A stretch of 64,000 nt of DNA, taken from assembly GCF_036507355.1 (NCBI RefSeq), contig NZ_AP027877.1. The stretch is one strand, 5' to 3'. This stretch comes from Escherichia coli (lineage in GTDB: Bacteria; Pseudomonadota; Gammaproteobacteria; Enterobacterales; Enterobacteriaceae). Within the stretch, counting starts at the first letter, position 1; every line of letters starts with the position of its first letter. Below, piece by piece: positions 19,570-20,502 of the stretch. The translations under genes and the position numbers were made by a program. A model generated the notes under the pieces. That model was not told the origin of the DNA, made no database searches, and saw nothing but the letters and a program-made list of their open reading frames with translations.

Positions 19570-20502
19570 ATGCATCGTATAGACACGAAAACCGCGCAGA
19601 AGGATAAGTTCGGCGCGGGTAAGAACGGTTTTACCCGTGGTAACCCCCAGACCGGCACGCCTGCCACCGATCTGGATGATGACTACTTTGACATGTTGCA
19701 GGAGGAGCTTTGCAGCGTGGTGGAGGCATCCGGTGCCAGCCTGGAGAAGGGGCGGCATGACCAGCTGCTTACAGCGCTTCGTGCGCTGCTGTTAAGCCGC
19801 AAGAATCCGTTTGGTGATATCAAATCGGATGGCTCGGTGAAAACGGCTCTCGAAAACCTTGGTTTGGGAGATGGCTCGGGGCGTTACAGCAAAACTGTCG
19901 TTTTTTCATCGTCGGGTTCATATACGTGGCCAGCTGACGTAAAACGAATTGACGTTATTCTGACTGCGGGGGGCGGCGGTGGCGGTGGATGTAACGCGGA
20001 GAACGCAAATCAGACATTTTCAGGGGCTGGCGGAGGAGCCGGAGGTACTGTTTTTGCCACTATTTATGCGACAGACAACGATGCCGGGCCAGGGACCTAT
20101 ACAGTGACAATTGGCAGCGGTGGTAGTGGTGCCAATGGGCCAGGGTCTGGAAATAATGGCGGTAATAGTTCGTTCATGACATTAACTGCGCTCGGCGGCC
20201 AGGGTGGGCAATGGGGCGGCGCTACAAATACCGCTGGCGGGCGCGGTGGCTCAGGCTCTGGCGGTTATAAAACTGAATAAGGCGGAGACGGTTCAGACGG
20301 ACAGGCGGGCCAGGCGCTATTAGTAGGCAATGGGGCATCGAGCTATTGGGGTGGCGGCGGCCGCGCTGGGCAACTGAGCGGTAATCCTGGAGTTTGCTCT
20401 GGCTCCGGCGGCGGGGGTGCATACGATAATAGCTATTCACACACGTCAGGACGTGGCGGGCACGGAGCTAATGGCGTGCTGGTAATTCGGGAGTTCATGT
20501 AA
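19570..20502 (+). pseudogene. Tail-fibre protein with glycine-rich repeats, interrupted by an in-frame TAA at 20278-20280
   Basis: Frame stays open before and after the TAA and ends ...GANGVLVIREFM* one nt before the Tfa start. Confidence 0.65.

Follow-up and report, generated by a model that had tools for sequence, protein, structure and literature searches.

Within the 64,000 nucleotides of Escherichia coli DNA analysed here (the window), the tail-fibre gene of a defective prophage has very probably been inactivated by a recent C-to-T nonsense mutation, CAA to TAA, which converts Gln237 to a stop; the stop would be the derived state and its appearance a step of ordinary prophage decay. Judged from its sequence, the locus is a pseudogene of the PF21722/Pam3 gp24-like family and not a functional member of it. 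This reading is carried by the sense codon that orthologous genes have at the site and by the finding of the same stop in a second DNA molecule.

Results

A single nonsense codon interrupts the tail-fibre reading frame

The first-pass annotation of this DNA had described a tail-fibre gene with one in-frame TAA, open on both sides of it and ending one nucleotide before the start of Tfa. Both points hold to the nucleotide: the plus-strand ORF that starts with the ATG at 19570 runs for 236 codons to the TAA at 20278-20280, the frame then stays open for 73 further codons until the TAA at 20500-20502, and the tfa ATG follows at 20503 (Table 1). When the orthologous codon is put in place of the stop, the product is 310 amino acids long. 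The open frame 3' of the premature stop is, on this alignment, inherited and no chance effect, because the 222 nt at 20281-20502 match the intact allele of E. coli GIMC1405, which encodes 310 aa, at every position. Restart of translation beyond the stop was considered and rejected: there is no usable in-frame start, the sole GTG and ATG lying in the last 7 codons.

The same annotation had reported glycine-rich repeats. The fibre protein is indeed glycine-rich and the repeats exist as protein motifs, but this does not extend to the DNA: Tandem Repeats Finder detected no tandem array in the fibre gene, and a repeat search recovered just short, dispersed GGN-rich similarities.

Table 1. Features of the tail-fibre locus and of the surrounding prophage, in window coordinates
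Feature	Position	Strand	Basis or remark
IS3-family transposase, left part of prophage	4425-5237	-	NF033516, E 1.5e-100
4.2-kb deletion junction, major capsid gene into tail sheath gene	18135..18138	.	segments overlap 4 nt
7.4-kb deletion junction, tail assembly gene into ymfQ	19102-19114		segments overlap 13 nt
ymfQ 3' remnant, Mu gp48-like baseplate wedge gene	19120..19566	+	PF10076, profile positions 40-149 only
Truncated tail-fibre ORF, 236 codons and premature TAA	19570..20280	+	
N-terminal baseplate-anchor module, about 101 codons	19570..19871	+	95-97% DNA identity to SfV-type phages
Glycine-rich receptor-binding domain (Pfam Gly_rich_2), interrupted at codon 237	19909..20490	+	PF21722, model, Foldseek
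Nonsense codon TAA from CAA (Gln237), C-to-T at 20278	20278..20280	+	
Orphaned 3' fibre part, 73 codons and original TAA	20281..20502	+	identical to intact allele
tfa, tail fibre assembly chaperone gene, intact, 134 aa	20503..20907	+	PF02413, E 3e-32
Acyltransferase gene, intact	21196..22320	-	'acyltransferase family protein' at the same place in GIMC1405
Prophage integrase intS, adjoins tRNA-Arg(CCT)	22461..23654	-	

The stop is absent from 13 orthologous genes

A comparison with orthologous tail-fibre genes, which the first-pass annotation had proposed, returned a sense codon at the site throughout: CAA (Gln237) was found in 13 of the 13 orthologues read, namely GIMC1405, 042 and 11 metagenome contigs, the latter retrieved by a degenerate exact-pattern scan and all matching the site with CAA. 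T at 20278 was seen only in the window and in one further ENA metagenome contig (L003, from ENA ERZ27234713, 1,060 bp, presumably independent of the window's strain). Between the window and GIMC1405, which has the closest allele, 2 nt differ in the 933 nt of the fibre gene, with 0 indels; these are an A-to-T change at gene position 265 (T89S) and the C-to-T change at 709 (Q237*). No gaps were present in the fibre gene alignments to 14 orthologues. A length of 310 aa is shared by 119 of the 120 best database relatives, and in KK19-02 a fibre CDS of 933 nt is annotated as intact within a complete tail module. Since the gene departs from the GIMC1405 allele at only these 2 nt, carries no indel and is unchanged over the 222 nt 3' of the stop, the mutation appears recent. 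The claim that one nonsense codon splits an otherwise intact gene is thereby borne out.

A full-length fibre gene was detected by megablast in 65 of 5,426 complete RefSeq E. coli genomes, a set from which the window's source genome is apparently missing. The Q237* allele occurs in none of these genomes (best match 99.8%). An exact-pattern scan of the contigs of species-representative genomes gave 0 matches to either fibre allele, and in the phage and plasmid collections the match was to the N-terminal third alone, with no full-length copy of the fibre. The exact 236-aa product is on record as BED21563.1 (E. coli; probably the window's own genome) and in L003. The Q237* allele, which can be traced with the 31-mer TATAAAACTGAATAAGGCGGAGACGGTTCAG, is thus rare and its age poorly constrained, the truncated protein being found in one other assembly of a very large collection.

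The same stop is carried by a differently deleted prophage remnant

Besides the TAA itself, L003 has both derived bases of the window's allele, T265 (S89) and T709, and its fibre gene shows three private changes, all synonymous and all upstream of the stop. At its left end (L003:1-108) the 3' end of the tape-measure gene (first 100 nt) is joined to the fibre ribosome-binding site via a 7-nt microhomology, TATCCGG. The resulting deletion measures 5.9 kb, against the 7.4 kb of the window's deletion, which runs from the tail assembly gene into ymfQ; neither arrangement is derivable from the other, because each keeps DNA that is lost in the other. This suggests, most simply, that the stop allele is older than at least one of the deletions, unless it was moved by recombination. 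We also considered that L003 might be an assembly chimera, and rejected it: both sides of the junction are colinear with real prophage, and an overlap of just 7 nt could not yield a chimera in an assembly at k=141, a value inferred from the contig name (k141_...).

These data bear directly on the choice between pseudogenisation and a sequencing error that had initially been left undecided. It could be argued that the strain truly has CAA and that the T at 20278 was miscalled, as the difference is a single base and the allele is found in none of the 5,426 complete RefSeq genomes (the source genome being apparently outside that set). Yet the same T recurs in L003 together with the linked S89, three private synonymous changes and a different prophage deletion, and a TAA seen in two distinct DNA molecules is unlikely to be a sequencing error. 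Moreover, position 20278 lies outside any homopolymer or G run, and elsewhere in the window nothing points to a poor assembly: the core genes are intact (over 24 kb of core flank, the best complete genome differs by 403 substitutions with only 8 gap openings, and all genes are open), as are the 20 other prophage genes checked. We therefore regard a sequencing or assembly error as improbable, and pseudogenisation as the part of the original alternative that stands.

The core flank at 40000-64000 (prmB to hisQ) has at most 98.3% full-length identity to any of the 5,426 complete RefSeq E. coli genomes, and it differs from them by substitutions instead of indels. Strain A5 has an annotated IS621-type element that falls inside the uninterrupted alignment; the window probably shares it at the same site. 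The source strain thus appears to belong to a poorly represented lineage.

The stop falls within a predicted compact receptor-binding domain

Over its first 302 nt the gene is 95-97% identical to the fibre genes of the Shigella serotype-converting phages SfV, SfI, SfII and SfIV and of several E. coli phages; the SfV-type genes are annotated as short or side tail fibre, and identity to them ends at query position 302-308. Because the identity stops at nt 302, residues 1 to about 101 can be taken as a shared anchor and the rest as an exchangeable receptor-binding cassette. The anchor was found in 1,636 E. coli records, corresponding to about 1,630 of the 5,426 genomes (roughly 30%), and has a weak fold match to the Mu baseplate chain 9ki1_j.

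The remainder of the protein is dominated by PF21722, which covers aa 114-307 of the restored protein (68.9 bits, cut-off 24.3) and which databases list for the truncated 236-aa product as well. PHROGs places both gene halves in tail-fibre families; no NCBIfam family matches the fibre. An exhaustive profile search showed that in relatives at 45-60% identity the glycine-rich domain always extends to the last residues. The AlphaFold model (26 diverse relatives) has a pLDDT above 90 over residues 110-310 and a final strand at 303-309. Foldseek matched the fibre of cyanophage Pam3 (7ypx_A, E 3.2e-12, probability 1.00, TM 0.50/0.61), followed by the glycine-rich tail-tip chains of mycobacteriophage Bxb1 (E 5e-9) and, more weakly, by the TNF-like/glycine-rich domain of ALK (E about 1e-2).

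The window copy does not reach the C-terminus of this domain. Its stop at codon 237 removes 74 residues, including the terminal beta-strand and the conserved DGQ, GGGGR and GGGG-AYD motifs. In the 26-protein alignment the stop cuts off six of the ten invariant glycines, among them G255, G278, G280, G299 and G302, and the nearly invariant G241, G263, G281 and G296 also come after residue 237. From the sequence comparison and the predicted fold, we infer that the 236-aa product would be unable to fold or to bind a receptor and would remain unfolded or be degraded.

The prophage has lost the genes needed for a tail

The prophage is inserted at argW, a tRNA-Arg(CCT) gene at 23780-23854, and has the fibre gene close to its right end. 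Comparison by BLAST with the intact Yu5 prophage revealed that the 7.4-kb deletion took the tape-measure, DNA-circularisation and baseplate genes and left ymfQ without about 40 of its N-terminal codons. The 4.2-kb deletion further upstream was mapped on the same reference, position 18138 of the window corresponding to Yu5 (L004) position 18139 and position 18135 to L004 position 22361. Since the sheath, tape-measure and baseplate genes are lost, no tail could be built, and we infer that selection for virion function on the fibre gene is absent.

Comparison of 20 other retained genes with their Yu5 counterparts revealed neither internal stops nor other point inactivations. The tfa gene has the same length as those annotated in GIMC1405 and 042 and still has a GGGAG Shine-Dalgarno sequence of its own, 9 nt before the ATG; its translational coupling to the fibre gene is lost. 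The acyltransferase gene is probably a lysogenic-conversion gene.

At the left of the prophage, a 94-aa ORF on the minus strand (5294-5578) accompanies the IS3-family transposase, and similarity to the Yu5 prophage starts only at window position 6039; the early region of the prophage appears to have been replaced or truncated.

To the right of the fibre gene, the minus strand holds at 20879-21016 a C-terminal remnant of an inverted tfa, overlapping the 3' end of the intact tfa. It is followed on the plus strand by a 48-aa ORF (21017-21163) with 47-55% identity to tailspikes or tail fibres from CBA120 (orf212) and Erwinia phages, and then by a terminator-like hairpin at 21171-21192. The segment 20879-21163 looks like the fossils of a second tail-fibre module. 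An invertible segment was also considered and discarded: the fibre-tfa cassette is flanked only by inverted pairs of 13-15 nt, at the level expected by chance, and the right end of the prophage has no invertase ORF.

The stop is unlikely to serve a function, and slippage did not create it

The stop might alternatively be functional, with readthrough or recoding of the TAA giving a low level of full-length fibre, or with the 236-aa fragment itself useful and maintained. The TAA allele does occur in two differently deleted remnants and has persisted through some divergence, during which all three L003-specific changes upstream of the stop were synonymous; the N-terminal anchor, too, is common to many prophages. 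However, selection cannot be read from just three synonymous changes, and the fragment breaks off midway through a domain predicted to form one compact unit. Nor is the stop conserved, as would be expected of a recoded codon: it is present in 0 of the 13 orthologue sequences read there. Against readthrough, a TAA with G as the next base terminates translation efficiently in E. coli and is not known to act as a recoding signal. We consider a functional stop very unlikely.

A related possibility, to which we attach the same very low probability, is that Q237* is maintained as an anchor-bearing, tip-less fragment of 236 aa that, if expressed from a cryptic prophage, could be incorporated into the baseplates of related phages, whether superinfecting or co-resident, and so poison their progeny. 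If true, such a poison subunit would explain the presence of the allele in two independently deleted remnants.

The probability is negligible that replication slippage in a GGN-rich tract inactivated the gene or that the gene is a phase-variable contingency locus, even though it contains runs such as GGGGGGCGGCGGTGGCGGTGG at 19968-19988 and two relatives (P0028 and P0030) have frameshifted C-termini starting in G-rich stretches. The lesion in the window is a base substitution in the context ...ACT GAA CAA GGC..., outside any G run, and slippage is therefore not involved; the earlier remark on slippage-prone GGN runs has no bearing on it. The gap-free alignments, with no indel against any of the 14 aligned orthologues, refute slippage for the window, and the complete orthologues among the best 120 relatives are uniformly 310 aa long. 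Nothing resembling a tandem tract with frame-shifting length polymorphism was seen, either by Tandem Repeats Finder or as gaps in the alignments.

The shifted frame begins after about residue 247 in P0028 and after about residue 210 in P0030. Both proteins come from other E. coli genomes and represent either independent inactivations of the same gene or long-read assembly errors.

Discussion

We propose that the intact 310-aa protein would be a short fibre attached to a Mu-type baseplate through residues 1 to about 101, with residues 114-307 forming a TNF-like and glycine-rich receptor-binding domain of the Pam3 gp24 kind, and that the Tfa chaperone encoded directly downstream would help this domain to fold. 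In the defective SfV/e14-like prophage of the window, the C-to-T change at 20278 would cut off the last 74 residues and abolish function. The point-inactivated allele, found in two remnants that have lost different blocks of tail genes, would then illustrate how such a prophage decays.

The locus holds a nonsense pseudogene of an ordinary kind, and the prophage around it is decaying. Its importance beyond annotation is small; it offers a clean, small example of prophage decay, and a single tail-fibre pseudogene (Q237*), neither a 236-aa kinase nor a split pair of genes, is the annotation that suits it. The glycine-rich fibre tip of the Pam3 type is uncommon among complete E. coli genomes, 65 of 5,426 having this cassette at full length, and databases misname it.

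Several such names were met. Many records give the intact 310-aa fibre as 'carbohydrate kinase', a name that the 236-aa record also bears. PGAP often splits the fibre into a 'StfP' pseudogene, its label for the N-terminal third, and a 212-aa 'glycine-rich domain-containing protein'. One phage record names the N-terminal third 'YfdL', and the alternative fibre that Yu5 has in this place goes under 'integrase'.

Among known systems, the closest structural counterpart is the fibre of Pam3, in which an N-terminal helical anchor is followed by TNF-like and glycine-rich receptor-binding domains, the glycine-rich segments stacking on one another, and in which a Tfa-type chaperone, the product of the neighbouring gene, holds the distal part and folds it (PMC9608196). 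Cyanophage Pam3 gp24/gp25 (PDB 7ypx, 7yfw) resembles the window's locus in being a short, single-protein fibre with a helical anchor and a distal domain reaching the C-terminus, its chaperone gene likewise lying directly downstream. The sequence match between the two fibres is weak and covers residues 103-309; identity is only 22%. Host and phage lineage also differ, the window's prophage being enterobacterial, SfV/e14-like and built on a Mu-type baseplate, and its fibre is cut at codon 237.

The fibre genes of SfV (orf21), SfI, SfII and SfIV are 96-97% identical to the window's gene over the first 302 nt and occupy the same position, after the Mu gp48-like ymfQ and before tfa and an O-antigen modification/integrase module. 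They differ in their C-terminal receptor-binding cassette, with no DNA match past nt 302-308. The SfV-type phages are viable, whereas the window's prophage is deleted.

The nearest parallels in decay are E. coli K-12 CPS-53/KpLE1 at argW (yfdL, tfaS) and e14 (stfP), which we take to be cryptic prophages with tail-fibre pseudogenes. CPS-53/KpLE1 is presumably defective as well; it occupies the same argW/intS site, and its inactivated fibre genes lie beside an O-antigen modification module. Compared with these remnants, the window has an acyltransferase gene in place of gtrAB-type genes, and its fibre gene was inactivated by one point mutation, whereas those of K-12 were inactivated by truncation.
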